Source: a virus
Taxonomy: Duplodnaviria; Caudoviricetes
Reading direction: 5' to 3' (one strand)
DNA: 58,005 bases
IMG/VR virus record: IMGVR_UViG_3300032213_002204
Coordinates: 1 to 58,005 of that record
Under the pieces are notes generated by a model. It saw only the letters and a list, made by a program, of their open reading frames with translations, did no database searches and was not told the DNA's origin. Shown one piece after another: positions 3,772 to 50,998 of this stretch (positions within the stretch are counted from its first letter, which is position 1; each line of letters starts with the position of its first letter). The position numbers and the translations under genes are program-made.

Positions 3772-3930
3772 AAATGTTGTACATACAAATTTATACATGT
3801 TGAACCCTTTACATACATAATATTATATAGGTTTGTAACCAACATGTTGCGTTATTGCATTATTATTACGTTTATTCTTTTTTTATGTTCATAAAATATA
3901 TAACTTTATATATGAAAAAATGAGGTAATC

Positions 3931-17110: not shown

Positions 17111-17539
17111 ATGAAAAAAATTATTATAGCCACATCTATTTTATTAACACTTACAGCTTGCGGAAGCAAGACTGTATACGTCACCAGCACTGAAGCGCCT
17201 GAGACAACAGTCAAGGTTGTCAAGACAACTGACGCACCAATTGCCACCTCACCAATGGACACTTATGCTCCGCCAGTCACATGGACAGACGAAGACGAGT
17301 TCATTGCAGACATCTACAACGAAAACACTGGCCCCATTTACCTTGAAGACCAAGACCTGATTGACACAGGATATGCCGTTTGCGAAGGATTGCGTAGTGG
17401 CATGAGTGGCTACGACGCCATTAATGCAATCACTTCATCAGCCGAAGGCAATGCTGCTGTAGAAGAACTCCTTATTAATGTTACAGCATCCGCCGTCATT
17501 AACTTTTGTCCCGAACAACAATATAAATTTAATGAATGA
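17111..17539 (+). CDS. DUF732-family lipoprotein
   Basis: lipobox LTAC; DEDEFI...GYAVCEGLRSG...AVINFCPE. Confidence 0.8.
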   Translation: MKKIIIATSILLTLTACGSKTVYVTSTEAPETTVKVVKTTDAPIATSPMDTYAPPVTWTDEDEFIADIYNENTGPIYLEDQDLIDTGYAVCEGLRSGMSGYDAINAITSSAEGNAAVEELLINVTASAVINFCPEQQYKFNE

Positions 17540-17761: not shown

Positions 17762-18226
17762 ATGGATCCGTTATTAGATATCTTTAATTCTTTTTTGTCA
17801 GAATATACCAAAACAAATGGATGGGATAGTCCCGCTTCCGTTTGGTTCTGGGATTACGATTCTTCTCAATGGAATTCTATTGAAGAATCTTATCAGGATC
17901 CATATGATTTAATCCCAACGCTTGTCGTCCATGGCTACCATGGTGCAGCTATGTTTGTAGTCCATGGATGGGCAGCTCCCTATAGTGAATATGAATATGA
18001 TGAATATGGAGAACCCACTCGTCCATCTAAGCATCCTGAGAGAATGCGAGTTCGTTCTTTCACTTATCTCAGTGGTGAAAATATTTTAAATTCATATCAG
18101 ATTATGGGCAAACCTATTGAAGAAGTTGAAGCTGAACCCGAAGGTGCTATTATTGATAGCATCATTATTGCCATCCACAAAATGAAAAAATACTTAGCTA
18201 AGGAAGTTTACAGTGAACAAGATTGA
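17762..18226 (+). CDS. hypothetical protein
   Basis: GAGG SD; GWAAP...RPSKHPERMRVR. Confidence 0.65.
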   Translation: MDPLLDIFNSFLSEYTKTNGWDSPASVWFWDYDSSQWNSIEESYQDPYDLIPTLVVHGYHGAAMFVVHGWAAPYSEYEYDEYGEPTRPSKHPERMRVRSFTYLSGENILNSYQIMGKPIEEVEAEPEGAIIDSIIIAIHKMKKYLAKEVYSEQD

Positions 18227-18692
18227 TTCTATTTTAAATAAAATTCTTTATGCTGTTGCTGTTTTATTTTTTCTTATAGCAGCTATTATACTTTTAACTG
18301 GCTGCGCAGTTACTCAAAGTGATACAACTACTACCTTGAAACCTATGCGCCCCACCAATGTTACTGTAGTTATTACTGATCCACAAATTATTCCATCATT
18401 TTCTGGAACAGTCAATAATACTTATATTCAAACTGTTGAGTTTTTTTATCAGGGAACTCCACCAGTTTCTGATCAAGTTATTATGGAATTCGGTGAGCAA
18501 TGGTGTGATCTATTGATAGATGGCATGCAGCCCGATGATGTTATTAACAGAATCCATGAAGGCGCTATTGATAACGACGATGCTCGTATGCACTTTTCAA
18601 TTGTAAATGCTGCTATACTAGAGCTTTGTCCCAGCCAATCCCATAAGTCTGAAGAGATCGCACTTAGATCTTTTCTTCCTAAGGAACAATAA
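18213..18692 (+). CDS. DUF732-like lipoprotein
   Basis: lipobox LTGC; FGEQWCDLLIDG...AAILELCP. Confidence 0.7.
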   Translation: MNKIDSILNKILYAVAVLFFLIAAIILLTGCAVTQSDTTTTLKPMRPTNVTVVITDPQIIPSFSGTVNNTYIQTVEFFYQGTPPVSDQVIMEFGEQWCDLLIDGMQPDDVINRIHEGAIDNDDARMHFSIVNAAILELCPSQSHKSEEIALRSFLPKEQ

Positions 18693-19343: not shown

Positions 19344-20105
19344 ATGACTTACCTCAGTAATGATAGCGATCTATTTGAATATGATCCAGAAGAAGATATT
19401 TCTACTCCAGACCTAGAAGAGATTAAAGATAATACTACTAAAAAAAAAACGAATGTTGACGATTTTCTTTCTCAACACAAAGATTTACTAGGTGTCTTAC
19501 AGACTTCTTCTGAACAATTATTAGACGAAAATAAAATTCGTTTAGCTACAGGCCTCCATGCAGCGACTTCTCGCTTCTTCGCTAAGATTGGACCGCCTAC
19601 TTTTGACAAATCAGTTTCAGTTGTTTTAGATAAGTTATCTAATGGAGATTTTTCTTTAATAAATACTTACTACCGGACAGAAGCTTTAATTATACAAAGA
19701 CTTTTATTTATTAGTTTAATGAATACTATTCTTGGTCTTGATTCTGATGAAAAGTCTGAAGATTCTTTTTCTGTAAAAAATCTTCTTGAAGCCTTGGAGT
19801 TTGAAAATGTTGACGATCATATCAAAATATTTTATCAGACATCCCTTAGCATCTGTCAACATACTTTAGTTCACGACAGAATTGTTTATCAACATCTTGG
19901 TGATCGCTTAAATATGCCCGTCAATCCAGATCTTATTGATCCACATTATTCTATTGATATTACCAAGTTAAATAATCCAGTAGTTAATGACTACGCAGAA
20001 AATGCCTATGCCTCAATCATGACAAGCATTGCTCAAGATGGTGTCCTTGAAAAACTCAAAGATACTTTCGGAATACAGATAGGTTATTACTCTAATGAAA
20101 AATAA
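19344..20105 (+). CDS. hypothetical protein
   Basis: 253 aa ORF. Confidence 0.7.
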   Translation: MTYLSNDSDLFEYDPEEDISTPDLEEIKDNTTKKKTNVDDFLSQHKDLLGVLQTSSEQLLDENKIRLATGLHAATSRFFAKIGPPTFDKSVSVVLDKLSNGDFSLINTYYRTEALIIQRLLFISLMNTILGLDSDEKSEDSFSVKNLLEALEFENVDDHIKIFYQTSLSICQHTLVHDRIVYQHLGDRLNMPVNPDLIDPHYSIDITKLNNPVVNDYAENAYASIMTSIAQDGVLEKLKDTFGIQIGYYSNEK

Positions 20106-20550
20106 ATTTTTTAAAAAGATACCTAAATTATTTTGGACCGTATCGAGCCTTGCTGCAGTAGCTGCAATTAACTATGCCTTAATTCCTACTCCATTTGTTT
20201 TTATTGCCCTTATGGTGCTTCTTGTCCATGAGTTGGCTCATTACTTTATGGCTAAAAAATTAGGAGCAGAAGTTACTCTTCCTGTATTCATTCCTTTACC
20301 TTTTATTGCCATAGCCTTTACCAAGATTAAAGGTTTATCCAGTAAATCAAAAATGAAAGTTGCATTGACGGGACCTATTACTGGATTCATTACGGCCTTA
20401 TTGCTTGTTATCCTTAACTCTATATTTAAAATTATATCTCCCGTAGCTTTGATTGTCTTAGCTATGGGTGAAATATTATTTAACTATATCGGCAATGACG
20501 GTAAGAAATATCGTTCTGCAAAGAAAGACATTATATTATGCACTTGTTAA
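20095..20550 (+). CDS. minimal M50 (site-2 protease-like) membrane metallopeptidase
   Basis: LLVHELAHYF (HExxH), VALTGP, distal NDG; hydrophobic. Confidence 0.75.
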   Translation: MKNKFFKKIPKLFWTVSSLAAVAAINYALIPTPFVFIALMVLLVHELAHYFMAKKLGAEVTLPVFIPLPFIAIAFTKIKGLSSKSKMKVALTGPITGFITALLLVILNSIFKIISPVALIVLAMGEILFNYIGNDGKKYRSAKKDIILCTC

Positions 20551-20759
20551 TTTTGCCATTTGTCCTAGCTGGTTTATCTGCGAAAATATTTAATAAAAAA
20601 TTAAATAAAAAATCTCATCCAGAAACCTCAGAAAAGCAGTTAGATATTATTATCTCTAGTTTTTTTACTGATATTACACCGACTGATTTTGGAGATTTTA
20701 AAGATGACAAGAAAGATAAGACGTCAACAAAAAAAGCAAGAGCTTCAATCGAGAGTTAA
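20538..20759 (+). CDS. hypothetical protein
   Basis: hydrophobic N-terminus. Confidence 0.45.
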   Translation: MHLLILPFVLAGLSAKIFNKKLNKKSHPETSEKQLDIIISSFFTDITPTDFGDFKDDKKDKTSTKKARASIES

Positions 20760-20961
20760 TTCTTTTCTTGAAGATTCCTATTTTGACATTCAGGGTTTAT
20801 CCCCTGGATCATTAGGCTCAAGCATAGATGAGCAATATCTAGCTAGAGTTCTTACAAAGTTAGCGATAGGATCTGCCACAGTATGGTGGTCTTTACTAGA
20901 AGTTAAAGATTTTCTTATACTTCGCAAAAAGTCTAAAGGATTAAAAAATGACCCATTCTGA
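20689..20961 (+). CDS. hypothetical protein
   Basis: ORF track; probable start at MTRK after GGAG. Confidence 0.5.
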   Translation: MEILKMTRKIRRQQKKQELQSRVNSFLEDSYFDIQGLSPGSLGSSIDEQYLARVLTKLAIGSATVWWSLLEVKDFLILRKKSKGLKNDPF

Positions 20962-21352
20962 AAACTCCCCTAAACCATCTAATACTTCTATAGATTCTTT
21001 TAACTTTTCTTTTTCCCTTCTAGATAAAGCTCGTGAAGATATACAATCTGATTATGATTCTTTATCTCAACGCATTGAGACTATTGTCGATTCTGAAAAA
21101 TTTTATGTAAATAACTTTCCAGTTCTTAAACAAATTCTTATGATTGGCGCTAAAAAGAATGATCTTAAAAAATTATCTAAAGCCCTTTCTAGATTGTCCG
21201 AACTTGTTGAAATACATTCTCAGCTTGAAGACAAACTAAGCGTTATGAATACTCTTGCTGATCAACCTCATTGGTTCACTTCTACCTTTGGTGATTTCTC
21301 TAAAGAGATTGATGCTGGTATTGAAAGTATATTTAGAGACTTAGAAGATTAA
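20948..21352 (+). CDS. coiled-coil hypothetical protein
   Basis: AAGGA SD. Confidence 0.6.
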   Translation: MTHSENSPKPSNTSIDSFNFSFSLLDKAREDIQSDYDSLSQRIETIVDSEKFYVNNFPVLKQILMIGAKKNDLKKLSKALSRLSELVEIHSQLEDKLSVMNTLADQPHWFTSTFGDFSKEIDAGIESIFRDLED

Positions 21353-21384
21353 TTTTATTATTACTGAATAGGATTTTATTTAAT

Positions 21385-22779
21385 ATGCAAAATGTTAACT
21401 ATACATTTATTAACAACGAAGGCAACTTTGTCTTTCGTTCTAATATCAATTCATTTGGCTTAGACCATGTAACTGATAAAGACGTTACTTCTTTTTATAC
21501 TAATTTTTCTTCTTCATCTTATTTTGACACTGGCTTATTGCCTGTGGATGGTACTGGTTTACTCTCTATTAGAAAAGCTGGCAATCACACTCAGATTGCT
21601 TATCAGCATGCTCCCGGTAAATACTATATTAACTGGGGTTCCTATGAAGGCGACCATGAAGCTAGGAAGTATTATGTAGCTCAGCCTTACCGTATTGTTG
21701 TTGCTGACTTACTTAATGGCAATATATATGGCGCTAGAACTTACTACAGTCCAACGCCCATCACCTATCCACAAGCTCCTCTGTATCATGTTAATCTTCC
21801 CAATATTAACTGTAAAGGATATAGAGGAAATAGCGTTGGATGGATATGCCTTTATCATAATGAAGATATCTCAGCTTATCCATTCAATGAAAAACTTGTT
21901 AAAATCTTAGATCGCTGCTCAGGTACTGAAACCTATAATGATAATAACATGAGTGAAACTGATGGTCCATGTTTTTATCGTGAAAACTATAAGCCTAATT
22001 ACTTAACTAATCCTCAATATTGGCAAGACTATTCAGACCAAAATGGTTATGAATGGACTTTAGATCCAGAACTTTGGATTCCAATTCTAGTCGAAGGCAG
22101 AGACAATCAAGATAAACATTATTCTAATGGCCAACCTTTGACATTCGCTGATGCAATCATTGGCAATTACCAATGTTATTACACCGACAATTTAATTCCT
22201 AAGCCTGTCAATCGCATCGTCAGATCAGATTATTCTTTAAATTCTAATTTAGTTTTTGAATGGTTCAGAAACTCTTACAATGAATCGCAACAATCACAAC
22301 AACCTCAACCGTCTATAGATCCTTACTCTAGTAGTTTAGCTGTTAAAGAAACTCTTTCTTTGGCTGCTCCTGCTTTTGTAAATCAACAAGACGAAGACGA
22401 AGATGAACAAGAGGATGAAGACTCTTGGTATTGTGAATCTTGTCATGAAACTTTTTCTGAATCTAATCATAAACCAGTACTTGATTACAACTCAAGATAT
22501 ACTTGTCAAGACTGTATTGATGAGTCTTATTCATTTGCCGTGAATACTCAATCCTATCATCATGATGATGATGTTTTATGGCTTAGTCTCAGTGAAGTAT
22601 ATATTTTCCCTGATACTTTAACATATGCCCTTGAATATAAAATCTGCACTATTTGCAGTCAAGGAATGTATTACAATCATAAAGACTTTAATTCTTTTAT
22701 GCCACTCACAGTTACGTATCCTGATACATGCCAAACTTGCATTCATACACTGACCAATCCTTCCGAACAACTATTTTGA
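21385..22779 (+). CDS. prokaryotic E2-like protein (Prok-E2 family D / PRTRC-B-like) with Cys-rich C-terminus
   Basis: QPYRIVV...PLYHVNLPNIN...GWICL; acidic linker; four CxxC pairs; adjacent to JAB, E1 and Ubl. Confidence 0.65.
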   Translation: MQNVNYTFINNEGNFVFRSNINSFGLDHVTDKDVTSFYTNFSSSSYFDTGLLPVDGTGLLSIRKAGNHTQIAYQHAPGKYYINWGSYEGDHEARKYYVAQPYRIVVADLLNGNIYGARTYYSPTPITYPQAPLYHVNLPNINCKGYRGNSVGWICLYHNEDISAYPFNEKLVKILDRCSGTETYNDNNMSETDGPCFYRENYKPNYLTNPQYWQDYSDQNGYEWTLDPELWIPILVEGRDNQDKHYSNGQPLTFADAIIGNYQCYYTDNLIPKPVNRIVRSDYSLNSNLVFEWFRNSYNESQQSQQPQPSIDPYSSSLAVKETLSLAAPAFVNQQDEDEDEQEDEDSWYCESCHETFSESNHKPVLDYNSRYTCQDCIDESYSFAVNTQSYHHDDDVLWLSLSEVYIFPDTLTYALEYKICTICSQGMYYNHKDFNSFMPLTVTYPDTCQTCIHTLTNPSEQLF

Positions 22780-22818
22780 TTAATCAAAGAACTAGAAAAC
22801 ATTATAACAGGAGAAAAA

Positions 22819-24489
22819 ATGTCTGAACAAATTTCTTTTGATGACCTTCCCGTCATCTGGATGGAAGATGGTCTTCCTTGTTTCATGGGAGACCGTGCTG
22901 ATATCTGTGACCTCGCAGAATCCTTTGGATTTAATATATACTATCTATTAGCTAATCAAGCTAAAGAGGTCAAGCCTACACCTCCTCCGTCTAACACCAC
23001 TTATGGCAAACCCGCTGCTACTGCCTTGGCTGTTGCTCCTCCTACTTTTGTGAGAAATTCTCAAATCTATCGAGTAGTTAATAACTTTGTAGGTAGAACA
23101 GTTACTGTTTGTTCTCCTTCTTTTCCTCAATCATTTATTGATGTTGAAGAAGAAGCTACTTATTCGATGCCTGCTATTCCGCATATCTTAATCGATAAGC
23201 TAGATCAGTTCTTTAGACTCGTTGATGCACAACACGGTGCTGAATCTATTGTCATGCTTACCTATGACACCACTAAAGAAGGATCAGAAGGATGGGGCAT
23301 TCTTGTTCCCGATCAAACCAATACTTCTGTTCACTGTAATTATGATCCAGACAGCATCGCTCAAGTTAAGCCTGATGAAGTTATGATTGTAGGATCAGTT
23401 CACAGTCATCCTGGAATGTCTGCGTATGCTTCCGGAACAGACCATGCTGATCAAGCAGATTTTGATGGAATCCATATTACTTTTGGCTGGCAAAAGACAG
23501 TTAACAATGGTGCTACTCAATACTACGCTGAACTTCAAATGGCTGGCAAAGCCTATAAGCTTGACATCGAAGATGTCTTTGAAGAATATATTATTGAAAA
23601 AGCTCCTGATCCTGAAGTAGTAGGTTGGACTGAAAAAGTAAAAAAAGCCAACCCCCCCAAAGCGGGGGGTTCGGTTACGGTAACTACTGGGGCGGCGTAT
23701 CAGGCCCCTCGTCCAAACACGAATCAAGGGACTCCGGCCTCTACGGTAGCTGGTACTCTCCCTAAGAATCAATATTATATAGATTATCCTTCTCATATTA
23801 AAAATATAACACATGATGTTATAGATATTGACAATGATAATATTCTAGTTTGCGAGGTTGTTGGTAACTATGAAAACAAAACCTACAATTGTCCAGGTTG
23901 CTTCTCCATTATTGCTAAGCATGATGTGTATGCTAGTAACTGTTGCCCTTTTTGCGATATACCCTTATCTGAACAGGATACAACAGCAGACCAAATAATT
24001 TGGGATATGTTTCAATATTGCAATGATAGAAAAATTCCCACTAATGCTTCTCTGTATTTACTAACTGCAGATCTTGACAATTCTCCAATGCTTCTTAGGC
24101 TTACTGCAGAAACAATGGACGCTTATTCAGATTCTGCTTGGATAGATATAGAAGATAAAGCTTTAGATGTCGATCCTAGGTTGACGCTCTGCTGCAGCAT
24201 GATTCCAGAAAACTGCATGTGCCCTACTCAGGTTGTCACTTATGACTCTATGGATTTTGATCAATTCATGGGCAAGTCTTCAGTTTATGTCGCTAGTTCT
24301 GCTTGTGAAGTATGCAATTATTACTACGATACAAATTGTCCTAGCTATAGCAAAGCTATTGTAGATTTTAAATCAAATACAAATCAATCAGACAACAAAG
24401 ATAAATACGAAGATTCTATCGATGGAGTCAATTGCGACTTCTTTTCCGAATACACCTATTCTACTTCCGAGGATATTTATAATTCATGA
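22819..24489 (+). CDS. JAB/MPN+ metallo-isopeptidase with Cys-rich C-terminal extension
   Basis: upstream Glu (AESIV), IVGSVHSHPGMSAYASGTD (HxHx7Sx2D), GIHITFG. Confidence 0.9.
   Translation: MSEQISFDDLPVIWMEDGLPCFMGDRADICDLAESFGFNIYYLLANQAKEVKPTPPPSNTTYGKPAATALAVAPPTFVRNSQIYRVVNNFVGRTVTVCSPSFPQSFIDVEEEATYSMPAIPHILIDKLDQFFRLVDAQHGAESIVMLTYDTTKEGSEGWGILVPDQTNTSVHCNYDPDSIAQVKPDEVMIVGSVHSHPGMSAYASGTDHADQADFDGIHITFGWQKTVNNGATQYYAELQMAGKAYKLDIEDVFEEYIIEKAPDPEVVGWTEKVKKANPPKAGGSVTVTTGAAYQAPRPNTNQGTPASTVAGTLPKNQYYIDYPSHIKNITHDVIDIDNDNILVCEVVGNYENKTYNCPGCFSIIAKHDVYASNCCPFCDIPLSEQDTTADQIIWDMFQYCNDRKIPTNASLYLLTADLDNSPMLLRLTAETMDAYSDSAWIDIEDKALDVDPRLTLCCSMIPENCMCPTQVVTYDSMDFDQFMGKSSVYVASSACEVCNYYYDTNCPSYSKAIVDFKSNTNQSDNKDKYEDSIDGVNCDFFSEYTYSTSEDIYNS
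23640..23765 (+). other. candidate -1 ribosomal frameshift cassette with a 39-codon alternative tail
   Basis: in-frame A AAA AAA heptamer; AACCCCCC/GGGGGGTT hairpin just downstream; -1 frame reads SQPPQSGGFGYGNYWGG...WYSP*. Confidence 0.6.
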
Positions 24490-25247
24490 ACTCACAACCA
24501 AAACGCTTTATACTAGTTGGAGCAGGTGGCATTGGCACTTGGCTTGCAGCAGGTCTTGTTAGACTTCTTGAATGGAAGTTTCCTGGATCTGCTCTTATCA
24601 TCGTTGACGGTGATACCTATGAGGAAAAAAATAAAGAACGACAAGACTTTACTAAGCTTGGCAATAAAGCCGTAGTTAAAGCTACTGAACTTGTTCCTCA
24701 ATTTCCCAAAACTACAATTATACCTGTAGCTAAATGGGTAGTGGCCGATGATTATTCTGGTGTCACTGACGAAGAAAGTCCTAAGATTACAGCTTCTCAA
24801 CTTATACGTGAAGATGATGTAGTCTTTGCAGTCGTTGACAACTTTGCTGCTAGAAAAATTATATTTGATGCTGCCGCTAAGTTGAACAATATTGACGTCT
24901 TTACTGGCGGTAATGATGATGACCTTTTTGGTTCTATCTATCATTACCAAAAGCGAGATGGTTACGAAGTAACCGTTCATCCAGCTGAGTTCCATCCAGA
25001 ATATCACAATCCTCCTGACAAGAATCCCGGTGAGCTTTCTTGCCAAGAGCGTTCAGAGATATCAGGAGGCACTCAACTACTTGCTACTAACATGGCTGTT
25101 TCAGCCTACATTCTAGGACGAGTTCAGAAAACAATCGTGTCCAATCAAAGTCCTGAAGAAACAGAGATTTTCTTTGATCTTGGTCTCGGTAAGTCCGAAC
25201 CCTATAATAGAACCACATCAGCTCTCAATCAACCAACCACAGTATAG
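24486..25247 (+). CDS. E1-like ThiF-family adenylyltransferase
   Basis: VGAGGIG, VDGDTYEEKNKERQ, VDNFAARK, candidate catalytic Cys in LSCQ. Confidence 0.92.
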   Translation: MNSQPKRFILVGAGGIGTWLAAGLVRLLEWKFPGSALIIVDGDTYEEKNKERQDFTKLGNKAVVKATELVPQFPKTTIIPVAKWVVADDYSGVTDEESPKITASQLIREDDVVFAVVDNFAARKIIFDAAAKLNNIDVFTGGNDDDLFGSIYHYQKRDGYEVTVHPAEFHPEYHNPPDKNPGELSCQERSEISGGTQLLATNMAVSAYILGRVQKTIVSNQSPEETEIFFDLGLGKSEPYNRTTSALNQPTTV

Positions 25248-25260
25248 TTAGGAGAATATC

Positions 25261-25515
25261 ATGGAAGCATCAAACGCATCGAACGCTCAGCCAAATCGTT
25301 CAACTGGTATGGCGAATATTCGCTATGGAGTTTACAACCAGCCCAGTAACATTGGTGGAAAGTCCATTCGTGAAGTTCGCGAACAGTTCAGCAAAATTTG
25401 GGGCATTCCCTCTGACGCAGTAGCTTACTGCGGCAAGGACAAGCTCGACGAGAACGCGGTTATTCAGCCAGGTCAAAACGTAGAGTTCCACCGCCGTGCA
25501 GGCGAAAAGGGCTGA
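25261..25515 (+). CDS. ubiquitin-like (beta-grasp) modifier protein
   Basis: GKSIREVR...GIP......LDENAVIQPGQNVEF pattern; exposed C-terminal RRAGEKG; follows E1. Confidence 0.85.
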   Translation: MEASNASNAQPNRSTGMANIRYGVYNQPSNIGGKSIREVREQFSKIWGIPSDAVAYCGKDKLDENAVIQPGQNVEFHRRAGEKG

Positions 25516-25528
25516 TTAACCCATATTC

Positions 25529-25568
25529 GGGGGAGGGTGCTGCTGGCATCCTCCCCCATATTTTTTTT
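25529..25568 (+). terminator. intrinsic terminator after the Ubl gene
   Basis: GGGGGAGGGTGC/GCATCCTCCCCC stem, then ATA and T8. Confidence 0.75.
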
Positions 25569-25603
25569 ATAAAGCCTACAGTTAGTTTGACGGTGAAAAA
25601 ATT

Positions 25604-27214
25604 ATGTTTGACAAAATTAAATTAGGTTATCCTAATATCTGGATTAAGGATTCTGATTCTTCCAGAATTATAGATATCATTACTACTACTCTTCCTAGAG
25701 ATTTTTATACTATTGATTTCCTTTCTGGATTCTCATTGTATTCCAATAATGCTTGGAAGACTGTCTTGGTAGAAAATCCAGCCTTTCAGTTAACTGGCGA
25801 AGACCAGTACATTTCCACCTTTGACCCTCAGGTTTCCTTAGATTATTTATTGCATAATCCTGACCGTCCCAAGAATCCCACAACTCTTATTATTGATGTC
25901 GTAGGTAAGCCCGACTCTGCTTTGGAAAACTATGGTTTATTTCTAAGTCATTTGAAATCTAAATATCGTCAAGCTTTTTGGCAAGATGACATGAGTCTTC
26001 TTCCACTGCAGTTTATTTTTATTTCAACACAGGATTGTCCGGAAGACTATCTTCCTTACTTTAATGTCAATGAAGACGTTATGCCCAATCCTCAAGAGCT
26101 AGCTACTATTGTTACTCATATTAATGAATCTGCACATGACCGCCTTCTCAATAACACTAGCGTCAAAGACGTTGTTAATGCCGGCATTGGACTCACCGAG
26201 TCTCAATTCATTGATCTTTGCTTAACGTCTATCGTTAATACTTCTCAACTTGATCCTAAATTCATTTACGATCAAAAGATGGCCAGCATTAAAAAGAATG
26301 GCATTCTAGAAATTATTAAACCCACTACTTCTTTTGCTGATATTGGTGGACTTAATAATATTAAAGATATCATTCGTCGAACCGCAGTACTCTGGAACGA
26401 TAAAGATCGAGCCAAATCTTTTGGAGTTACTCCTATCCGTAGACTTCTTATGGTTGGAGTTCCCGGCACTGGCAAATCAGCTATATGCCAGGCCACTGCA
26501 AATGAGCTTGGCTTAGACTTGGCACGTACAGGCATCAGTCAAGTTATGAACTCTTTCATTGGTCAATCAGAGGCCAACATGCGTGCCGTATTCAAACAGA
26601 TTAGACTTATGTCTCCCTTATGTGTTTGGATTGACGAGTTCGGTCGTGATCTTTCCGGCGGATCTAGTTCTTCCCATGTAGATGGTGGCACTACTGATCG
26701 TGTTCATGGTGAGTTCTTAACTGGTCTTCAGGAACTTCCAGAGGAAACATTCCTGCTTTGTGCAGCCAATCAACTAGAAGCTCTTCGTCCAGAAATGTTA
26801 CGCGCAGATCGCTTTGACAAAATTATGTTTGTTGGACTTCCTTCTCATGAAGAGCGTAAACATATTTTTCATATTCACTTAGATAAAATTGACACTGATC
26901 ATGATTATGATTATGATTCTTTGGCCGAAGCTTCTAAGTATATGACTGGTGCTGAGATTCTTTCTCTTATCCGTGAAACAAAATTCTATGTAGTTTCAGA
27001 ATCTCTTCGCCCTATAACTACCAAAGATATCCTTAGTTTTATTCCTAAAACCAAAAACACTATTTGGCTCAAACATAATGACATGGTTATGTCCATGTAT
27101 CAGTATGCCTTAGAGCAGTGGGATTGGGCCTCGACAGAACAAATGGAAGATGCTAGAATCATACTAGGAAAGTCTTCTGTTAAAAAACAAACGTCAACAA
27201 TTGCTTGGAAATAA
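25604..27214 (+). CDS. classical AAA+ ATPase (Ycf46/Cdc48-like)
   Basis: SFADIGGL, GVPGTGKS, FIGQSEAN, WIDE, AAN...PEMLRADRFD, TGAEI. Confidence 0.92.
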   Translation: MFDKIKLGYPNIWIKDSDSSRIIDIITTTLPRDFYTIDFLSGFSLYSNNAWKTVLVENPAFQLTGEDQYISTFDPQVSLDYLLHNPDRPKNPTTLIIDVVGKPDSALENYGLFLSHLKSKYRQAFWQDDMSLLPLQFIFISTQDCPEDYLPYFNVNEDVMPNPQELATIVTHINESAHDRLLNNTSVKDVVNAGIGLTESQFIDLCLTSIVNTSQLDPKFIYDQKMASIKKNGILEIIKPTTSFADIGGLNNIKDIIRRTAVLWNDKDRAKSFGVTPIRRLLMVGVPGTGKSAICQATANELGLDLARTGISQVMNSFIGQSEANMRAVFKQIRLMSPLCVWIDEFGRDLSGGSSSSHVDGGTTDRVHGEFLTGLQELPEETFLLCAANQLEALRPEMLRADRFDKIMFVGLPSHEERKHIFHIHLDKIDTDHDYDYDSLAEASKYMTGAEILSLIRETKFYVVSESLRPITTKDILSFIPKTKNTIWLKHNDMVMSMYQYALEQWDWASTEQMEDARIILGKSSVKKQTSTIAWK

Positions 27215-41503: not shown

Positions 41504-41727
41504 CATTTAATGAATGGCTCCAAATCGGCATTGATAACAGATGGTGTGGTCCGGCTATTTGCGAGACCCATGATAGCCTACCCCTTACGGAGGATGAGTC
41601 AGAGATGATATGGAGTGGAGATGATCCCTGTATCCACATTATACGCCTCTATGAGAGCCCCGAACACGCTGAGGCTATAGAGCAGTCACATTCTCCATCT
41701 ATGTGGAGAAAACCCTATATAGGGTAA
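41500..41727 (+). CDS. phage hypothetical protein
   Basis: GAGG SD; WCGPAICETHD...GDDPCIHIIRLY. Confidence 0.65.
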   Translation: MTFNEWLQIGIDNRWCGPAICETHDSLPLTEDESEMIWSGDDPCIHIIRLYESPEHAEAIEQSHSPSMWRKPYIG

Positions 41728-41786
41728 ATTTGAAAAAAAATTTTGAAGGCCAAATTCGTTTTAGAAGAAAGTTTAGTTTTTGGAAA

Positions 41787-42395
41787 ATGAATATTAATAT
41801 TGAATCTTTAATAAATTTAAATATATTTACAACAAAACTGTTAGATATTGATAATAATTTTTTGTCTAAAAATATATTAGATAATTTAAACACCCCAAAT
41901 GTGCCAGGATTTTTAGAATCACATAATCATACTTATCACGAAGATACTATTTTAAATGAATCTGAAGAATTAAATAAATTAATAACAGAAATAGCAATTT
42001 TTGCAGGAGATGTAACCAGCAGGAAATATATTTTAGAATCAATTTGGGGACTTGTCTTAAATAAGGGACAGTCAGTTATGATGCACACACATAAATCCAA
42101 TAGGCATATGCACCCGGAGGAATATTATTCAATTGCATATTACCCACAGGTTCCAGAAGGTTCAGCTGACTTGATATTTTCATTAAATTATTGTAATATA
42201 ATTGAGGAAGTAAAAAGAATCAAGCCAGAAGAAGGTCTGCTAGTTATGTTTAATTCTTACATACCACACATGACAAGTGATCATAAGTCGCAAATTCCAA
42301 GAATTGTGATAAGTGCAAATATTGCACCGGAAAATCCAAACACAGAAATAGTACCAGATTGGTCTCCATATAAACTAAGGAATAGCAATGAATAA
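41787..42395 (+). CDS. 2OG-Fe(II) oxygenase-like protein
   Basis: W......HTH, SIAYY, PEEG.LVMFNSYIPH, RIVISAN. Confidence 0.8.
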   Translation: MNINIESLINLNIFTTKLLDIDNNFLSKNILDNLNTPNVPGFLESHNHTYHEDTILNESEELNKLITEIAIFAGDVTSRKYILESIWGLVLNKGQSVMMHTHKSNRHMHPEEYYSIAYYPQVPEGSADLIFSLNYCNIIEEVKRIKPEEGLLVMFNSYIPHMTSDHKSQIPRIVISANIAPENPNTEIVPDWSPYKLRNSNE

Positions 42396-43757: not shown

Positions 43758-44322
43758 AGGATCTAGTGGACAAGAGCAATTTGTTCTAGAATTATTAAAC
43801 TATAAAAAAAATGGATACTATGTGGAGCTTGGAGCATTTCATTCCACGTTGGGTAGCAATACATATCATTTGGAAAATGATTATGATTGGAATGGTGTCT
43901 CTTTTGAAATAGACGAAAAAAGAAAAGAAGAATTTATTTCAAATAGAAAAAATCCATGTGCCGGAGACGCGTTAAAGTTTAATTATATATCTTATTTTGA
44001 AGAAAATAATTTTCCAAAACAAATAGATTATTTACAAGTAGACATAGATAATGGCTACGATATAGATTGTAAACCCTTTGGCAATCATTACACTACATTA
44101 TTAGGATTGATTAGTGTTCCATTAAGTTTGTATAGATTCACAATTATAACTTTTGAACATGACACAAATATGTACTTTAGAAATAAAGGAATGCGTGACG
44201 CGCAGAGAGAGATTTTAGACTGCCTAGGGTATACGCTTGTAGTGAGAGAACAGCACGAAGACTGGTGGGTAGACTCAAATGTAATACCAATTAATACATA
44301 CAGAAAATATCTTAGATCCTAA
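43747..44322 (+). CDS. FkbM-family methyltransferase-like protein
   Basis: GYYVELGA...SNTY.LE...WNGVSFE, IDYLQVDID, ITFEHD, EDWWV. Confidence 0.8.
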   Translation: MNYKGSSGQEQFVLELLNYKKNGYYVELGAFHSTLGSNTYHLENDYDWNGVSFEIDEKRKEEFISNRKNPCAGDALKFNYISYFEENNFPKQIDYLQVDIDNGYDIDCKPFGNHYTTLLGLISVPLSLYRFTIITFEHDTNMYFRNKGMRDAQREILDCLGYTLVVREQHEDWWVDSNVIPINTYRKYLRS

Positions 44323-45086
44323 AGGGACATGTCCTTGATAAGATTTGGCATCCATATTTTATGTGGATTTTCTTTTCCGACATACTCATCTCCATCAAAC
44401 GATACTCCATAGGAAGATACGCTCAAATAGGCGTAGCGTTCACCGCTTGTTACTGGAAGTACCTCATGTCTTCCTAGGTAATTAGATGGATAAATTGCAA
44501 CCGAACCAGCTTGTGGGCGGTACGTGTAGTCCATATTGGGAAAACGCAACTCCCCACCCTCGTAATGTTCTCCGCAGTTATTTAAGTATAAGTTTATACT
44601 CGTACTATTATATAGAGAAACTTGATTTCCCGGTATCTGACCCCATTCATGAGGCACTTGATCATCGCAGTGAGGACCTATTCTTTGGTCTACGGCATAA
44701 GCAGCTATGTGCCCATGGGGACGCCACCAGGAGGTAGTAGATGCGTCTGGGAAGATCTTACAGTATTGAACAAGGGCAGAATAAATTGCGCTTTCAAATA
44801 GGGAAATTAAATCTAACCACTCTTGCTTTGGTTTGTCTTGACAATTAGCTCCTTTTAAATCTAAAAATCTTTGTGGAGCCATCAATATATCGCTAATATT
44901 AAACTTAAAACCTGTTTTATTTTTAGCGTATTTTACGCCATCTTCTTCGTGAATTGTAAATGTTTCTTCTTGATTATCCTTTAGCCATTGTATATATTCT
45001 GTTAGAATTTTATTATCTACTGAAATAACATCAGTAAGTATAACAACGCCCATACCTATGTGTTCATGTTTCATAATATCACCCAA
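44319..45086 (-). CDS. 2OG-Fe(II) oxygenase (WWxxxGH paralogue)
   Basis: HCD, YLN, YEGGELRF, PSNYLGRHEV..V.SGERY. Confidence 0.85.
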   Translation of the reverse strand: MGDIMKHEHIGMGVVILTDVISVDNKILTEYIQWLKDNQEETFTIHEEDGVKYAKNKTGFKFNISDILMAPQRFLDLKGANCQDKPKQEWLDLISLFESAIYSALVQYCKIFPDASTTSWWRPHGHIAAYAVDQRIGPHCDDQVPHEWGQIPGNQVSLYNSTSINLYLNNCGEHYEGGELRFPNMDYTYRPQAGSVAIYPSNYLGRHEVLPVTSGERYAYLSVSSYGVSFDGDEYVGKENPHKIWMPNLIKDMSL

Positions 45087-45981
45087 AGTTTGTAACCTTA
45101 TATTGATCAGAATATTCTGAGTATCCTTTTGATTTTAAATAACGCCTATAATTATCTCTTAGATCCGGCATATATATATTTGTACCAACAGCTGCTGCTC
45201 CTGGATTTAATACTGGATCACACACTTCTTCATTCACACTTGGATTTGGAGTGCCTTGACTATACCAACCTAAGTACGAAAATCTAACTCCACTACCTAC
45301 TGGCTTTACTTCATGAGCTGCTATATAATTGGATGGAAACATTAATATATCGCCTGCTTTAGGCTTGTATTCTATATCCAAATAATTGAAATAATGATGG
45401 CCTTTCGTATAGTTATATTCATTAAGTTCACTATCTGTATCGACTGAATCATTTAAGTACACTAGCGAAGTAATAACATTTCTTAAGGCTAGCTCATGAT
45501 TTGTTTTATGGACACCATATATATATTCTGCGCTGATATCGGAATGTGAACCCAAATAAACATCTGGCCCATAAGACACTATATGACCTTTCACCTTCCA
45601 CCAAACGCAATTATAAGATAACGGAAACTGCTCAAAGTATCTCAATAAGCACTCATCTTTGAGTCTTTCAATTTCATTAAAAATAGATTTAATATTTGTA
45701 TCTTGTATCTGATGTATTCTAGACGCTCTTTTTGGCATTTCGTCAATTGAATTCTTAGTGAAGATGTACCCACTCTTGTTAAAGTAAATATCATTACCTG
45801 TTTCGGGGTCTACTCCAGGCTGATACATCTCTAAATGTTCATCTTTAATTAGCCCAGAGCATAGAGTGTATACATGATTCCAATCTAAATTAATAGCATT
45901 TTTGAAAACTATTACACCACCACCAAGATTAATTGGCTCAATATTATCTTCCTGCTGCATCAACATCTCTCTTTGTCCCAT
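45079..45981 (-). CDS. 2OG-Fe(II) oxygenase (WWxxxGH paralogue)
   Basis: HSD, YLND, FPSNYIAAHEV...GVRF. Confidence 0.85.
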   Translation of the reverse strand: MGQREMLMQQEDNIEPINLGGGVIVFKNAINLDWNHVYTLCSGLIKDEHLEMYQPGVDPETGNDIYFNKSGYIFTKNSIDEMPKRASRIHQIQDTNIKSIFNEIERLKDECLLRYFEQFPLSYNCVWWKVKGHIVSYGPDVYLGSHSDISAEYIYGVHKTNHELALRNVITSLVYLNDSVDTDSELNEYNYTKGHHYFNYLDIEYKPKAGDILMFPSNYIAAHEVKPVGSGVRFSYLGWYSQGTPNPSVNEEVCDPVLNPGAAAVGTNIYMPDLRDNYRRYLKSKGYSEYSDQYKVTNFG

Positions 45982-46837
45982 GACTATTGTATATTCTACT
46001 TACTGGAAGAAGTAGATCTTTATGATTGTCGCCATACTTGTTTAGTATGTACTCTTTATAATCTACATATAGATCTTTCATCCAAGTTTGCCCGCCGAAA
46101 AAACTTTGCGAGCTTTCCATTATGTCAATTCCTCGATCCTTTTGAGACGAACCCTGACCATAATATTCAAGAAATGCGTAGCGTGTACCATCGGTTACCT
46201 TGCCTACCTGATGTGTCCCCAAGTAATTGGCGGGAAACATTAACACATCACCAGCCTGTGGTGTATATTTAAGGTCAGCGTATGGAAAAGAAATTTCTCC
46301 GCCAACAAAGTTATCCTTATAAGATTCCGATGAGCTAGAATTAAAGTAAGTTATTGCAGCAAGAACGTGGAGTATGCCCAGCTGATAATCTGGTTCAAAA
46401 CCAGGTTGATAATTGATGTCATTATCGCAATGAATTCCCAAGTCTGAGCCCGGATCATAAGCCAACACATGACCAGCAGTTTTCCACCATAAGCATGGTA
46501 ATATTTGTGGATATATTTCTATATATTCTAGTAGGCATTGATACATACTGTTTTGACATTGTGTAAAGAATAATTTTTGTTCATCAGAAGAAAAGTAATT
46601 ATAATAATCAGTAATTCTACTGCAGTTTTTTGTTATATCTTCTTTGGAAAATCTATGGCCACTCTTATTTATGGCGTATAAAAAATTCTTATCTTCATCA
46701 TAGATATTGGTGTAATGATTTTTTATAGAATTTTCTTTTATAGATGAAAGAAAAGAAATTGGATTATATTCATTTAAATTTATTCTATCTTTGAATAATA
46801 CTATTCCATTAGGAAATGTCTGTGTCTTGTCCATCAT
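45944..46837 (-). CDS. 2OG-Fe(II) oxygenase (WWxxxGH paralogue)
   Basis: HCD, FVGGEISF, FPANYLGTHQV...GTRY. Confidence 0.85.
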   Translation of the reverse strand: MMDKTQTFPNGIVLFKDRINLNEYNPISFLSSIKENSIKNHYTNIYDEDKNFLYAINKSGHRFSKEDITKNCSRITDYYNYFSSDEQKLFFTQCQNSMYQCLLEYIEIYPQILPCLWWKTAGHVLAYDPGSDLGIHCDNDINYQPGFEPDYQLGILHVLAAITYFNSSSSESYKDNFVGGEISFPYADLKYTPQAGDVLMFPANYLGTHQVGKVTDGTRYAFLEYYGQGSSQKDRGIDIMESSQSFFGGQTWMKDLYVDYKEYILNKYGDNHKDLLLPVSRIYNSHGTKRDVDAAGR

Positions 46838-47831
46838 TCAATTCTTCAGATATATGAGTTGATCCATACTGCGCAACACAGCGACCTTGAAATACGGGAT
46901 TGATCCCCAGCTCTACTTCGTTCTTTGAATACAGTGAAAATTCAGACTTGCAATAACGCTCATAATCATCATAAATATTATTCATCCACATTCCAGGACA
47001 CCAATCAAAACTTTCATCTGGTTCAACTATATTGATATTTACCTTGTCATCCGGCGATCCTTGCCCAAAGAATGACAGATATGTGTATCTTCGCCCTGCG
47101 GTCATTCTAGTTACATCATGTGACGCAATGTAGTTTGTTGGAAACATAATGACATCACCACGTTGTGGTCTGTATTCAATATCCATATGAAAAAATCTCA
47201 AATGACCACCAACAAAATTGGTCCCATCTAATTGCGATTCGTCATCCACGCAATCATTTAGATAAACCAGCGCCCCACAAGTCTGGCGGGCAGCCATTTG
47301 CCCTCGCGGCATATAGCGAACGCCTCCGGTCACCTTGTAGTTAGTGTCGTTATCGCAATGTGAACCAAGAACTCCGTCATCCACATAGCGAAGAACGTGC
47401 CCACGATTACGCCACCAAACACACCCAACAAGCAGCGGGTAAATATCAATATAGCGGATCAGGCATTTGTAGATAGTTTCTTCTATATTATAAAAAAAAC
47501 AAGCAACATCTTCTGGGGTTGTTTCTTCAACTGGCCGAAGAATTCTTACTGGCGTCGCTGGGATGTCTTCTGGGCGATAGCGAAAACCATCCTCATTAAT
47601 GCCATACTTCTCGCCATCTTCCCCAACTATATAACTCCAGCGATTCTTGTGTGACTCGTCAGCCTTGCTGTCGATGTAATCGAACGCTGTTTTTTGGTCA
47701 AATTGTAAGACGTTTCTAAAAACAATTATCCCAGGACCCAGGATATCAATTTGATAATTTGATATTTCTAATATTTCTTTATCGCCAATATTGGGCGTAT
47801 CTGGATGAGGTTTCATTTTATCATCTAACAT
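46809..47831 (-). CDS. 2OG-Fe(II) oxygenase (WWxxxGH paralogue)
   Basis: HCD, YLND, FVGGHLRF, FPTNYIASHDV...GRRY; TGGTATAAT at 47865-47873. Confidence 0.85.
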   Translation of the reverse strand: MLDDKMKPHPDTPNIGDKEILEISNYQIDILGPGIIVFRNVLQFDQKTAFDYIDSKADESHKNRWSYIVGEDGEKYGINEDGFRYRPEDIPATPVRILRPVEETTPEDVACFFYNIEETIYKCLIRYIDIYPLLVGCVWWRNRGHVLRYVDDGVLGSHCDNDTNYKVTGGVRYMPRGQMAARQTCGALVYLNDCVDDESQLDGTNFVGGHLRFFHMDIEYRPQRGDVIMFPTNYIASHDVTRMTAGRRYTYLSFFGQGSPDDKVNINIVEPDESFDWCPGMWMNNIYDDYERYCKSEFSLYSKNEVELGINPVFQGRCVAQYGSTHISEELNDGQDTDIS

Positions 47832-47894
47832 TTTTATTTATTAACTCCTAATGTCTTACAATAAATTATACCATAAATCAGAGTGGATCTATGG

Positions 47895-48635
47895 TCAATT
47901 CTTGATAATTATATTATAACCATAGTTATTTGTCATGTGATACAAATTAATATCTTGATTATCAGTAATTGAAAATAGATTCATTATAGGATTTATATGA
48001 TACTCTTGATCGTAAAAAAGCGTGCCATCATTTATAGAAAAAATTATCATAATTCCGCCCTTATTTAAGGCTTTAATTAATTTCTCCTGTAATATATCAT
48101 TTATCAATATATCTACAGATGAAAATGTAATCATATCAAAAGTTTCTTCTTCTAAATTTTCTATATCTTGAAGATCGTATACATTGTATGATGAATTAAA
48201 AGGGTAATCATTATTTTTAAGTATAAAATTTTCAAAATTATATAAATATTTATTATTCACAAAAGATAATTCACACCCATCATTAGCAGCTGCCGCAACT
48301 AAACCAAAACTAGCACTAGGAGCATGTACTAATATTTTTTTAGGTTTTTTAATTTGATAAAACATTTGAGAATAGTGTTCCAAATAAACATATAGATTAT
48401 CAAACCATTCAGAAGATGTTGTAGCAAAAACATCCTCTACATACAGGGTGGGGTCTGCACCGGTTGCTATTGCTCTTTTATCATAGGTTAATGTATCATT
48501 AAAAGCTTTTGCAGCGTTTGCAAAGTCTGAGTAAATTGTTTCATAATCTATCTCAAGTCTATCGATTAAATCAACTGATAAATTTCTAGCTAAAACATTT
48601 GATATTAAATACCTATTTCCTAATACCTGATCCAT
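47895..48635 (-). CDS. class I SAM-methyltransferase-like protein
   Basis: KPKKILV, ETFDMI, LNKGGIMII. Confidence 0.5.
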   Translation of the reverse strand: MDQVLGNRYLISNVLARNLSVDLIDRLEIDYETIYSDFANAAKAFNDTLTYDKRAIATGADPTLYVEDVFATTSSEWFDNLYVYLEHYSQMFYQIKKPKKILVHAPSASFGLVAAAANDGCELSFVNNKYLYNFENFILKNNDYPFNSSYNVYDLQDIENLEEETFDMITFSSVDILINDILQEKLIKALNKGGIMIIFSINDGTLFYDQEYHINPIMNLFSITDNQDINLYHMTNNYGYNIIIKN

Positions 48636-48949
48636 TACACCACCTGCTTAGCAAATTGCATCCAAGACCATAGTCTTCTGATGTTTGAAATTACATTTTT
48701 ATTTATTGATTTTAAATACATATCTGAACTTAAGTTTGGGTTTATTTCTCCTAAATCAGTATTTATTATTTTATTGTCATAATAAAATGTATATCTAATT
48801 CTTTCAATAATATCATCTATAGTTATAAAATATAAATCACTTTCATTAAAGCCAATTAGGTAAAATATATATAATATTTGTTCTTCCACATAATTAAGAT
48901 CACTATTAGGACTGTATCCTGGACTATTTTTTGAACAGACTCTTGACAC
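48635..48949 (-). CDS. hypothetical protein
   Basis: coupled ORF. Confidence 0.6.
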   Translation of the reverse strand: MSRVCSKNSPGYSPNSDLNYVEEQILYIFYLIGFNESDLYFITIDDIIERIRYTFYYDNKIINTDLGEINPNLSSDMYLKSINKNVISNIRRLWSWMQFAKQVV

Positions 48950-49215
48950 TATGAGTCCTTTTCCTTGTTCGGATTGATGGTGTCAATTTCGCCATTTTGT
49001 AGGATAGTACAAATATAACTTTGATTCTCAATGCTATTAACGCCATAAGTTTCGGGACTCCATTTGGTTATTGTATCCTGTTTTCCAGGAATGTCGTATG
49101 GTCCGTCTCCTAGTTCGTCTTGCTTTTGCTGCATTAATATACTCATATTAATGTTGATTTTTTCTGCGTGTTGTTTTAAGTTTTCTTTTTTAATTTTAAT
49201 AATTTTATTTTTCAT
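48949..49215 (-). CDS. hypothetical protein
   Basis: AAGGA SD; coupled ORF. Confidence 0.55.
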   Translation of the reverse strand: MKNKIIKIKKENLKQHAEKININMSILMQQKQDELGDGPYDIPGKQDTITKWSPETYGVNSIENQSYICTILQNGEIDTINPNKEKDS

Positions 49216-49228
49216 AAAAAATCCTTAA

Positions 49229-49447
49229 TTAGCTTTTAAGTTTATCTAAATTTTGTTTCATTCTCAATAAGCTTAAGAATGAATTATGTAATAAATCTGT
49301 TTCTTGAACAGGAATTTCATAAGAGTCAGTAAGATCATCTTCATCTACGCCTAACTGTATTGCTAATTGAAAAATGCTCTGCTCTAAAAAAATCATAGCT
49401 TTTTCTTTGGCTTTACTTTTTTGTTGTTCACTTAAAGTATTTGACAT
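49229..49447 (-). CDS. hypothetical protein
   Basis: GAGG SD. Confidence 0.6.
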   Translation of the reverse strand: MSNTLSEQQKSKAKEKAMIFLEQSIFQLAIQLGVDEDDLTDSYEIPVQETDLLHNSFLSLLRMKQNLDKLKS

Positions 49448-49459
49448 AATAACCTCTTT

Positions 49460-50338: not shown

Positions 50339-50377
50339 AATAAACCTTTTCGTTAAGTCTACTTAAGATAGTAACAG

Positions 50378-50998
50378 TTAACCTAGTATTTCGTCTATAG
50401 CTTCCCTAATGGTCCAACTCTCACCAGTAGTCAGTGGCACACTATCTAGTGGCATCGCTTGCCAGTTAAATCTAGTGATAACTTTACCACTTCTAGAAAC
50501 AATAAACTTTTCCCAATTATGAGGAATTCTTGCTAAGTAATCTCCCTCAAGATTTTGTCCATCCTCAGCCTCCTTGGAGCCGTCTGCTCTAGGTGCAGAG
50601 ATATTTCTTTTAACTTTACCCTTAAGGTAAGAGTACAATACATGCTCATCAGGACCATTGACTTTTATTTTTTCTGTTATAGGAAATGTAACAAATGGAT
50701 AATATTGTTTAATAAAAGATAATATTTCTTCATTTTTTCCCGGTTCCATTTGTCCAAACTGATTACATGGTACGCCAACCACGGAAAATCCTCTGTCCTT
50801 AAACTCATCATGGACTTTTTGCAGTTGCCAAAATTGTCTTAACGTTCTAGCATATGACCAAAACTTACTGCAGTGGGGAGTGTATCCATATTTAGAAACT
50901 ATATTAATAAATAATGTAACGCTGCCGTGAAATTGGTCAAGTAAATGTTCTTCTCTATTTAATCCTGATATTTGAATATCATATATGTTTTCCGTCAT
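50378..50998 (-). CDS. glutathione peroxidase family protein, atypical active site
   Basis: LFINIVSKYG, GFSVVGVPCNQFGQMEPG, VTFPI.EKIKVNG..EH.LY.YLK, NWEKFIV. Confidence 0.88.
   Translation of the reverse strand: MTENIYDIQISGLNREEHLLDQFHGSVTLFINIVSKYGYTPHCSKFWSYARTLRQFWQLQKVHDEFKDRGFSVVGVPCNQFGQMEPGKNEEILSFIKQYYPFVTFPITEKIKVNGPDEHVLYSYLKGKVKRNISAPRADGSKEAEDGQNLEGDYLARIPHNWEKFIVSRSGKVITRFNWQAMPLDSVPLTTGESWTIREAIDEILG

Follow-up and report, generated by a model that had tools for sequence, protein, structure and literature searches.

Probable programmed -1 ribosomal frameshifting in the linker of a phage-encoded JAMM/JAB protease gene

In Escherichia coli dnaX, the signals for frameshifting are a slippery heptamer of A residues that spans two Lys codons, a downstream stem-loop and an upstream Shine-Dalgarno-like element (PMC5389563). 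The site described here has two of these features, the Lys-Lys heptamer and, a few nucleotides (nt) after it, a stable stem-loop. This site lies in a viral DNA (Duplodnaviria; Caudoviricetes) comprising positions 1 to 58,005 of the IMG/VR record IMGVR_UViG_3300032213_002204, all 58,005 nt of which are referred to as the window, and it is found in a gene that codes for a phage JAMM/JAB metalloprotease. Our analysis indicates that the linker region of this gene very probably harbors a site of programmed -1 ribosomal frameshifting, of the kind that is classical for bacteria, by which two isoforms of the protease would be produced.

The parallel with dnaX extends to the products, since in both genes the shift yields an isoform that is truncated at the C-terminus and retains the N-terminal domains of the full-length protein, as in tau and gamma. 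The dnaX protein is, however, unrelated to the phage JAMM protease, and the sites also differ in detail. The dnaX heptamer is A_AAA_AAG, whereas the phage heptamer is A_AAA_AAA in nearly all homologous contexts; dnaX has an upstream Shine-Dalgarno element, whereas the phage site has no conserved one; and the shifted frame of dnaX stops almost at once, whereas the phage -1 frame adds a conserved tail of 23-47 residues. Conserved -1 shifts likewise fix the ratio of proteins with a common N-terminus in the tail assembly chaperone genes (lambda G/GT type) and in IS3 transposase genes, and the IS3-type sites are often A_AAA_AAG followed by a downstream structure. In these two systems, however, the shifted product is the longer fusion, whereas in the phage JAB gene it is the shorter protein, and both the gene family and the pathway are different. 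Outside tail chaperones, insertion sequences and dnaX, few conserved -1 frameshifts are known to us from bacteria and phages, and those that we know of have each revealed a need for two proteins at a fixed ratio. At the level of literature listings and abstracts, neither recoding of any JAB/JAMM gene nor a phage cassette of the present kind was found. The mechanism is of a known, dnaX-like class; for the site, the gene family and the tail, no earlier description appears to exist.

The sequence-only reading of the window had proposed that an A_AAA_AAA heptamer, read in the zero frame as GTA AAA AAA, is followed by a hairpin whose C-run begins 5 nt past the heptamer. Both signals were confirmed at the positions listed in Table 1, the heptamer by verification of its phase in frame 0 and the hairpin by the sequence itself as well as by RNAfold, which in fact predicted a longer helix, spanning 23647-23677, in which GCCAACCCCCCC is paired with GGGGGGUUCGGU. 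The predicted stop of the -1 frame and the sizes of the two products also agreed with a direct reading of the sequence, as residues 1-276 followed by 39 residues of the -1 frame make a short product of 315 aa (amino acids), next to the long product of 556 aa. The proposed signature of dual coding was found, with one small correction. The 0-frame codons of the overlap were indeed rich in NCG (20%) and GGG (7.5%), compared with 1.0% and 0.2%, respectively, in 10 other genes of the window; the codons of the -1 frame, however, were not quite as ordinary as had been stated, their GC content at third positions being 0.70 versus 0.27 in the genome. The whole area is GC-rich (0.62 at 23650-23749, against approximately 0.35-0.40 around it). 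When the 40 nt downstream of each A-run of at least 7 residues were folded, those of the proposed site (-19.0 kcal/mol) were the second most stable among the 34 runs, for which the median was -3.6 kcal/mol, and the sole run with a stronger downstream fold was that of a terminator-like hairpin with T8 after the gene of the candidate ubiquitin-like protein (Ubl). A search of Rfam placed the frameshift element in no family and returned one chance-level match on the opposite strand (rnk_pseudo, E 0.54). An independent gene in the -1 frame was considered and ruled out, since a TGA at 23631-23633 closes this frame and there is no ATG, GTG or TTG between that stop and the heptamer.

Conservation in homologues had been set beforehand as a test of the frameshift, and it is from this conservation that the significance of the signal comes. 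The DNA sample consisted of 48 loci from viral contigs, 80 from metagenomes (the best 80 of 168) and two in metagenome-assembled genomes, i.e., 130 loci, which with the window made 131 sequences; some of the loci are one contig present in two collections. These collapsed to 102 distinct 300-nt contexts with the heptamer, in which the protein identity went down to about 38%. An A_AAA_AAA or A_AAA_AAG heptamer was found in phase at the homologous place in 129 of the 131 sequences. Its codons were GTA AAA AAA in 97 of the 102 contexts and TCA AAA AAA in four, with A_AAA_AAG in the remaining one; the wider spellings were AAAGTAAAAAAAG in 90 contexts, CAAGTAAAAAAAG and AAAGTAAAAAAAT in three each, GTCTCAAAAAAAG in four, and AAGGTAAAAAAAG and GTCAAAAAAAAGA in one each. 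In the four contexts with GTCTCA, the Val before Lys-Lys is replaced by Ser, and yet the A that ends the codon is kept. The A-run is exactly 7 long in 101 contexts and 8 long in one. This uniformity is not the habit of these genes, for elsewhere in them AAA accounts for only 68% of the Lys codons, GTA for 22% of Val, CCC for 12% of Pro and GGG for 3.7% of Gly. Expressed as information, the three wobble positions within the heptamer and the one within the C-run each hold 1.9-2.0 bits, versus 0.2-0.9 bits, and once 1.3, at the upstream wobble positions from -48 to -6. By this comparison of codons, the signals have been kept beyond the needs of the 0-frame protein.

The two exceptions among the 131 sequences were L048, in which the JAB match is only partial, and L130, a distant outgroup with a 49% match to the JAB part only, in which the heptamer as well as the PP and GG runs are absent and the Cys-rich region forms a separate second open reading frame (ORF). 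The single A_AAA_AAG context belongs to L045 (2977-4862), a 34-41% match in GC-rich DNA that is without the C/G hairpin. Its -1 frame (3792-3866) is 23 codons long and ends in ..LAWEYYGYI, its 0-frame linker is rich in G, S, T, Y and H, and here too the Cys-rich region is split off as a second ORF.

The hairpin was likewise retained, as 101 of the 102 contexts have a C-run of 4-9 nt that starts 3-7 nt past the heptamer (5 nt in 71 contexts and 6 nt in 16), followed after a gap of 1-18 nt by a G-run of 5-8 nt. The extensions of the stem on its inner side differ among the contexts, with complementary changes, being A/T in 19 contexts, GC/GC in 10, GTA/TAC in seven, T/A in six and G/T in five, besides others. 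For the 40 nt after the heptamer, the median minimum free energy was -15.6 kcal/mol, compared with -4.6 kcal/mol (standard deviation 2.9) in 13,620 control windows from the same genes, of which a mere 0.14% reached -15.6 kcal/mol. Heptamer and hairpin have the layout of a canonical -1 programmed site, namely an X_XXY_YYZ heptamer phased with the ORF before it and a 3' stimulator that begins about 5-9 nt further on. An upstream GGAG was found at -13, about 10 nt before the heptamer, in 31 contexts, where it is made by the Trp-Ser codons TGG AGY; we take this to be the place of the Shine-Dalgarno stimulator of dnaX, and in some lineages the GGAG may serve as an optional enhancer.

The -1 frame itself was open for 23-47 codons (median 34) in all 102 contexts, whereas null -1 runs begun at randomly chosen in-frame codons of these genes had a median of 5, and only 3.3% of them reached 27 or more. 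The overlap in the homologues is GC-rich (0.574 versus 0.369 in the rest of the genes), and in this same DNA the +1 frame stayed open over 23 or more codons in only 61 of the 102 contexts. The 94 distinct tails start with S-x-P-P..G-G, often followed by F-G-Y, and are composed of 18% S, 16% G, 10% Y and 5% W, while charged residues make up 5.6%; they are also rich in T and N, and have no Cys or Met. The conservation is marked at the C-terminal end, where Trp occurs among the last five residues in 87 of the 94 tails and an aromatic residue among the last three in 91; in the tail alignment a Trp is at least 90% conserved. Typical endings are LYSSWYS, YGGWGI and HTWWQ, and the tail of the window ends in LYGSWYSP. 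In the 0-frame protein, by comparison, the linker is T/A/P-rich and its single invariant residue is Gly312 (GGT), which is evidently the shadow of the Trp codon of the -1 frame (Table 1).

Substitutions were counted in 26 pairs of tails of equal length and 70-98% nucleotide identity. In the overlap, the differences fell on positions 1, 2 and 3 of the -1-frame codons in the numbers 155, 79 and 172, from which it follows that the second position of the 0 frame is the most variable one in the overlap. The 120 nt upstream had the ordinary 0-frame pattern (51, 29 and 233). The result was the same in kind in 12 non-overlapping pairs, with 70, 35 and 80 in the overlap and 22, 15 and 107 upstream. The dual coding that had been proposed from the window sequence is thus borne out by the codon positions of the substitutions, and the -1 ORF evolves as a coding sequence; the frame and the signals alike are under selection in about 100 distinct homologues. 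Overall, the analysis shows that the linker of the annotated protein is largely a shadow of the second reading frame. A search with the tail profile for longer proteins that contain it, in which 8000 candidates out of 5.8 billion predicted proteins were scored, gave no match, which is weak evidence; similarly, none of the other ORF ends in the window resembles the tail.

A number of observations weigh against a programmed frameshift and need to be set beside the above. The evidence for it is entirely comparative, and the 102 contexts are related to one another: by their JAB core they form 63 clusters at 90% identity and only 22 at 80%, and the counts of contexts are therefore not counts of independent events. 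Within the single window, the signal does not reach significance, as the 48 A7 runs found there nearly equal the 45.9 expected from shuffled sequences and the local 133-nt fold of the site has a z of -1.98. RNAalifold found no consensus structure in 71 ungapped segments of 48 nt, a null result that we ascribe to the ungapped alignment, because the loop lengths differ. Conservation of the C- and G-runs could be partly driven by the protein, since PP and GG are encoded in both frames. An upstream Shine-Dalgarno-like stimulator was not conserved, any 4-nt word of this kind being present in 55 of the 102 contexts. Lastly, A_AAA_AAA is less prone to shifting than A_AAA_AAG in E. coli, and it is the former that is found in 101 of the 102 contexts; AAA may be preferred over AAG here if the hosts read AAG by a separate tRNA-Lys. 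As an observation on the A7 runs in general, a second one occurs at 24625-24631 inside the E1-like gene (GAG GAA AAA AAT); it is not among the six strongest downstream folds listed, the other runs being weaker than -7.1 kcal/mol.

The same short isoform could arise with ribosomes that do not shift at all, if the RNA polymerase slipped on the A7/T7 run and added one A, because the inserted A (AAA AAA AAG C..) yields a protein identical to that of the -1 ribosomal shift. The perfect homopolymer in 101 of the 102 contexts, with an A rather than a G conserved to 99% at its last position, agrees with such transcriptional slippage. For bacterial RNA polymerases to slip efficiently, however, 7 A are few; the programmed sites known have about nine or more A or T. 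Moreover, a hairpin at a fixed distance of 3-7 nt on the 3' side in 101 of the 102 contexts is a hallmark of ribosomal frameshifting that slippage leaves unexplained, and we know of no role for a 3' hairpin in slippage at an upstream run. Polymerase slippage is therefore regarded as very improbable. Contigs from RNA libraries (X15, X16) cover 23246-23510, 23792-24036, 23966-24232, 24067-24270 and 24408-24489, with the site outside them, and weakly suggest that the protease gene is present in RNA libraries. It can also be envisaged that no recoding takes place, and that KVKK-x2-PP-x2-GG has been conserved as a peptide or as an RNA element, such as an interdomain pause site or a hairpin for mRNA stability, the open -1 frame being a by-product of the GC-rich linker. 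This is in keeping with the protein alignment (32 sequences), in which V274, K275, K276, P279 and P280 do not vary and G283 and G284 hardly do, with the paucity of stops in GC-rich DNA, as seen in the often open +1 frame, and with the chance-level number of A7 runs in the window. A peptide motif, however, explains neither the invariant wobble bases and the exchange of GTA for TCA that keeps the A, nor the use of CCC and GGG, which are rare elsewhere. It also fails to account for a -1 frame that is open in every context and always stops after the conserved Trp motif, and for substitutions that spare the second positions of the -1 frame and strike those of the 0 frame most. On balance, we consider the absence of recoding to be very improbable.

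A trivial cause would be mis-assembly of the A7, C7 or G6 run, the true gene being two genes or a single frame; errors are indeed common in homopolymers, and the sequence of the window is of the metagenome type. However, identical run lengths in an identical phase recurred in 129 of the 131 sequences from many assemblies, the 0 frame was open into the conserved C-terminal domain in the homologues listed, and two independent DNA contigs from two other studies spanned the site without a gap, with no indel reported in any of the four runs. A homopolymer error, which had been raised together with the original proposal, is thus excluded for practical purposes, and we assign it a vanishingly small likelihood.

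Returning to programmed ribosomal frameshifting, that the slippage takes place on the ribosome itself is what we infer from the anatomy of the site. In the proposed mechanism, two tRNA-Lys would occupy AAA AAA (23641-23646) while the GC-rich stem-loop, 5 nt downstream and at the mRNA entrance, would impede translocation; both tRNAs could then re-pair perfectly one base back on A_AAA_AAA, and a part of the ribosomes would continue in the -1 frame and stop 39 codons on. The long form of 556 aa would comprise the N-domain, the JAMM domain, the disordered linker and the Cys-rich, zinc-ribbon-like domain, while the short form of 315 aa would have the shared N-domain and JAMM domain followed by a flexible G/S/Y-rich tail with an aromatic end. 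Made in a fixed ratio, the isoforms would provide the deconjugating enzyme of the cassette with two different C-terminal modules for partners or substrates, and the earlier suggestion of a deconjugase with two alternative targeting tails is a reasonable inference. By its flexibility and its aromatic C-terminus, the tail of the short isoform looks like a docking peptide. A more specific version of this idea, which is tentative and in our estimate rather unlikely, is that a flexible G/S/Y spacer with an aromatic end, typically W-Y-x-COOH, tethers the JAMM protease to a ring-shaped partner, which would be the Cdc48-like ATPase of the cassette or a host protease; such an end would be of the Hb-Y-X type, as in proteasomal ATPases. 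The conserved short C-terminal motifs of other cassette proteins are in line with an assembly that is joined through tails. If the docking role were true, frameshifting would set the stoichiometry of a phage-built machine of Ubl, deubiquitinase and unfoldase that resembles the proteasome lid, and this would be the first known recoding in a ubiquitin-like pathway of prokaryotes or their viruses.

The identity of the gene product as a JAB protease, assigned earlier from the sequence, was upheld by the motif as well as the fold. The Pfam match of the 556-aa protein to Prok-JAB (E 3.1e-5, 24.3 bits) lies just under the curated cut-off of 25. Nonetheless, the JAMM motif E...H-x-H-x7-S-x2-D is intact, its residues E142, H195, H197, S205 and D208 being invariant in the alignment of 32 sequences. 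A Foldseek search with the JAB part gave 42 matches at E <= 0.001, nearly all of them JAMM/MPN-domain proteins, with TM-scores to the target of up to 0.67; the best were 6fnn_B, 8tyx_B and 5u4p_B (E 3e-5 to 5e-5), and the proteins at the top were an Rpn11 homologue, a bacterial Ubl-deubiquitinase and AMSH. The assignment as a JAMM/MPN+ (JAB) metalloprotease, predicted to be an isopeptidase, is thus supported by sequence and structural model. Rpn11, the Caldiarchaeum Rpn11 homologue and the Bil-type Ubl-deubiquitinase share with the phage protein the H-x-H-x7-S-x2-D motif and the upstream Glu, and the likeness to JAMM/MPN+ enzymes extends to the neighborhood, as the phage gene adjoins an E1-like gene, the gene of a small Gly-ending protein and that of a Cdc48-like AAA ATPase. 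The phage enzyme differs from those of the Rpn11 type in being phage-encoded, in carrying an additional conserved domain at the N-terminus and a Cys-rich region at the C-terminus, and in the two isoforms that recoding would generate. In the AlphaFold model of the 556-aa protein (mean pLDDT (predicted local distance difference test) 68), the N-terminal, JAB and C-terminal parts were confident, whereas residues ~260-315 scored 24-29; because of these low scores, the overlap is taken to be a disordered linker of the 0-frame protein. A protein search retrieved 458 homologues. Among the 120 of them that were listed, nearly all were 523-625 aa long, with a query coverage of 92-100%, and two were shorter (370 and 426 aa); the fusion in the 0 frame is therefore genuine and conserved.

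Genes for a tail fibre, a DNA helicase and many 2OG-Fe(II) (2-oxoglutarate- and iron-dependent) oxygenases mark the window as phage DNA. The protease gene is part of a cassette at 20095-27214 that codes, in this order, for an M50-type peptidase, a 134-aa protein, the 464-aa protein, JAB, a ThiF/E1-like protein, an 84-aa protein and a Cdc48/VAT-like AAA ATPase (Table 1). This order is conserved in 49 loci (L001-L047, L129, L130), individual genes being present in 35-49 of them. The frameshift site would therefore sit in the protease of a phage-encoded ubiquitin-like module, consisting of E1, candidate Ubl, JAMM and Cdc48-like ATPase, which is conserved across a large group of uncultured freshwater phages; no homologue of the JAB gene was found in the phage genomes deposited in GenBank. 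The frameshift would reveal a product beyond the prediction of gene callers, namely JAB with a tail of 23-47 residues, and the site offers a simple experimental handle on how phages use ubiquitin-like conjugation.

Table 1 Positions of the proposed frameshift signals, the protease gene and neighboring cassette genes in the window
Feature	Position	Strand	Description
Slippery heptamer A_AAA_AAA	23640-23646	+	Codons 23638-23646 GTA AAA AAA = Val274-Lys275-Lys276; phase checked
Spacer GCCAA	23647-23651	+	5 nt, from heptamer to C-run
Stem-loop AACCCCCC / CAAAGC / GGGGGGTT	23650-23671	+	C7/G6 hairpin, RNAfold
-1 frame extension	23646-23765	+	39 codons, SQPPQSGGFGYGNYWGGVSGPSSKHESRDSGLYGSWYSP, then TAA at 23763-23765
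TGG TAC (Trp-Tyr) in the aromatic motif at the C-terminus of the tail	23751-23756	+	Also encodes 0-frame Gly312 (GGT)
ORF of the long isoform	22819-24489	+	556 aa: N-terminal domain, JAMM/JAB protease domain, disordered linker, Cys-rich (zinc-ribbon-like) C-terminal region
JAB/JAMM domain core	23203-23478	+	Residues 129-220; E142, H195-x-H197-x7-S205-x2-D208
464-aa protein	21385-22779	+	Possible E2-like N-terminal part, Cys-rich C-terminal part; 49/49 loci
E1-like ThiF-family gene	24486-25247	+	PF00899 E 5.7e-12; 4-nt overlap with JAB stop; 47/49 loci, 52-100% identity
84-aa candidate Ubl	25261-25515	+	Ends ...EFHRRAGEKG; 46/49 loci
Cdc48/VAT-like AAA ATPase, 536 aa	25604-27214	+	PF00004 E 1.1e-22; VCP-like ATPase E 2.7e-55; 45/49 loci

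Regarding the other members of the cassette, the 464-aa protein had no match in Pfam (27 members searched) and no sequence match in the PDB, and its feature match in the Atlas was to clusters with 13-20% Prok-E2_D members (score 0.94). Most of the 37 distinct C-termini of this protein and its homologues close with an acidic-Pro-Phe motif (..EEPF, ..ESPF, ..DDPF), which resembles the tip of bacterial SSB. The 84-aa candidate Ubl also had no Pfam match, and its C-terminal GEKG is conserved. In four loci, which account for 3 of the 13 distinct C-termini, the Gly is extended by two residues, giving GEKGSL, GEKGNI and GEKGLA (L042, L045 and L047 are among these loci); such extended ends look like those of a precursor that needs processing and may be a substrate of JAB. 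No PHROGs family was found for JAB, E1, Ubl or the 464-aa protein. The E1 (52-100% identity) and the Ubl (29-100%) are far better conserved than JAB (37-99%). The AAA ATPase has a conserved aromatic-Lys motif at its C-terminus (..AWK, ..SWKI, ..FKW). Between the Ubl and AAA ATPase genes, at 25520-25568 (+), there is a GC-rich hairpin with T8 that, at -22.1 kcal/mol, is the strongest fold beside any A/T run of at least 7, and it looks like an intrinsic terminator or attenuator.

Outside the cassette, a 495-aa ORF at 53544-55031 (-) has a C-terminal run of [FY]FPP repeats (FFPPYFPPYFPPFFPP...), and no PHROGs family was found for it. Two small proteins, encoded at 17111-17539 and 18213-18692 (+), match Pfam DUF732 (E 2.7e-7 and 2.7e-6), one of them with a lipoprotein signal; we take DUF732 to be typical of Actinobacteria, and it may hint at the host. 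Finally, at least seven paralogous 2OG-Fe(II) oxygenase-like genes were found in a row, at 44319-53525 (-) and 41703-42395 (+).

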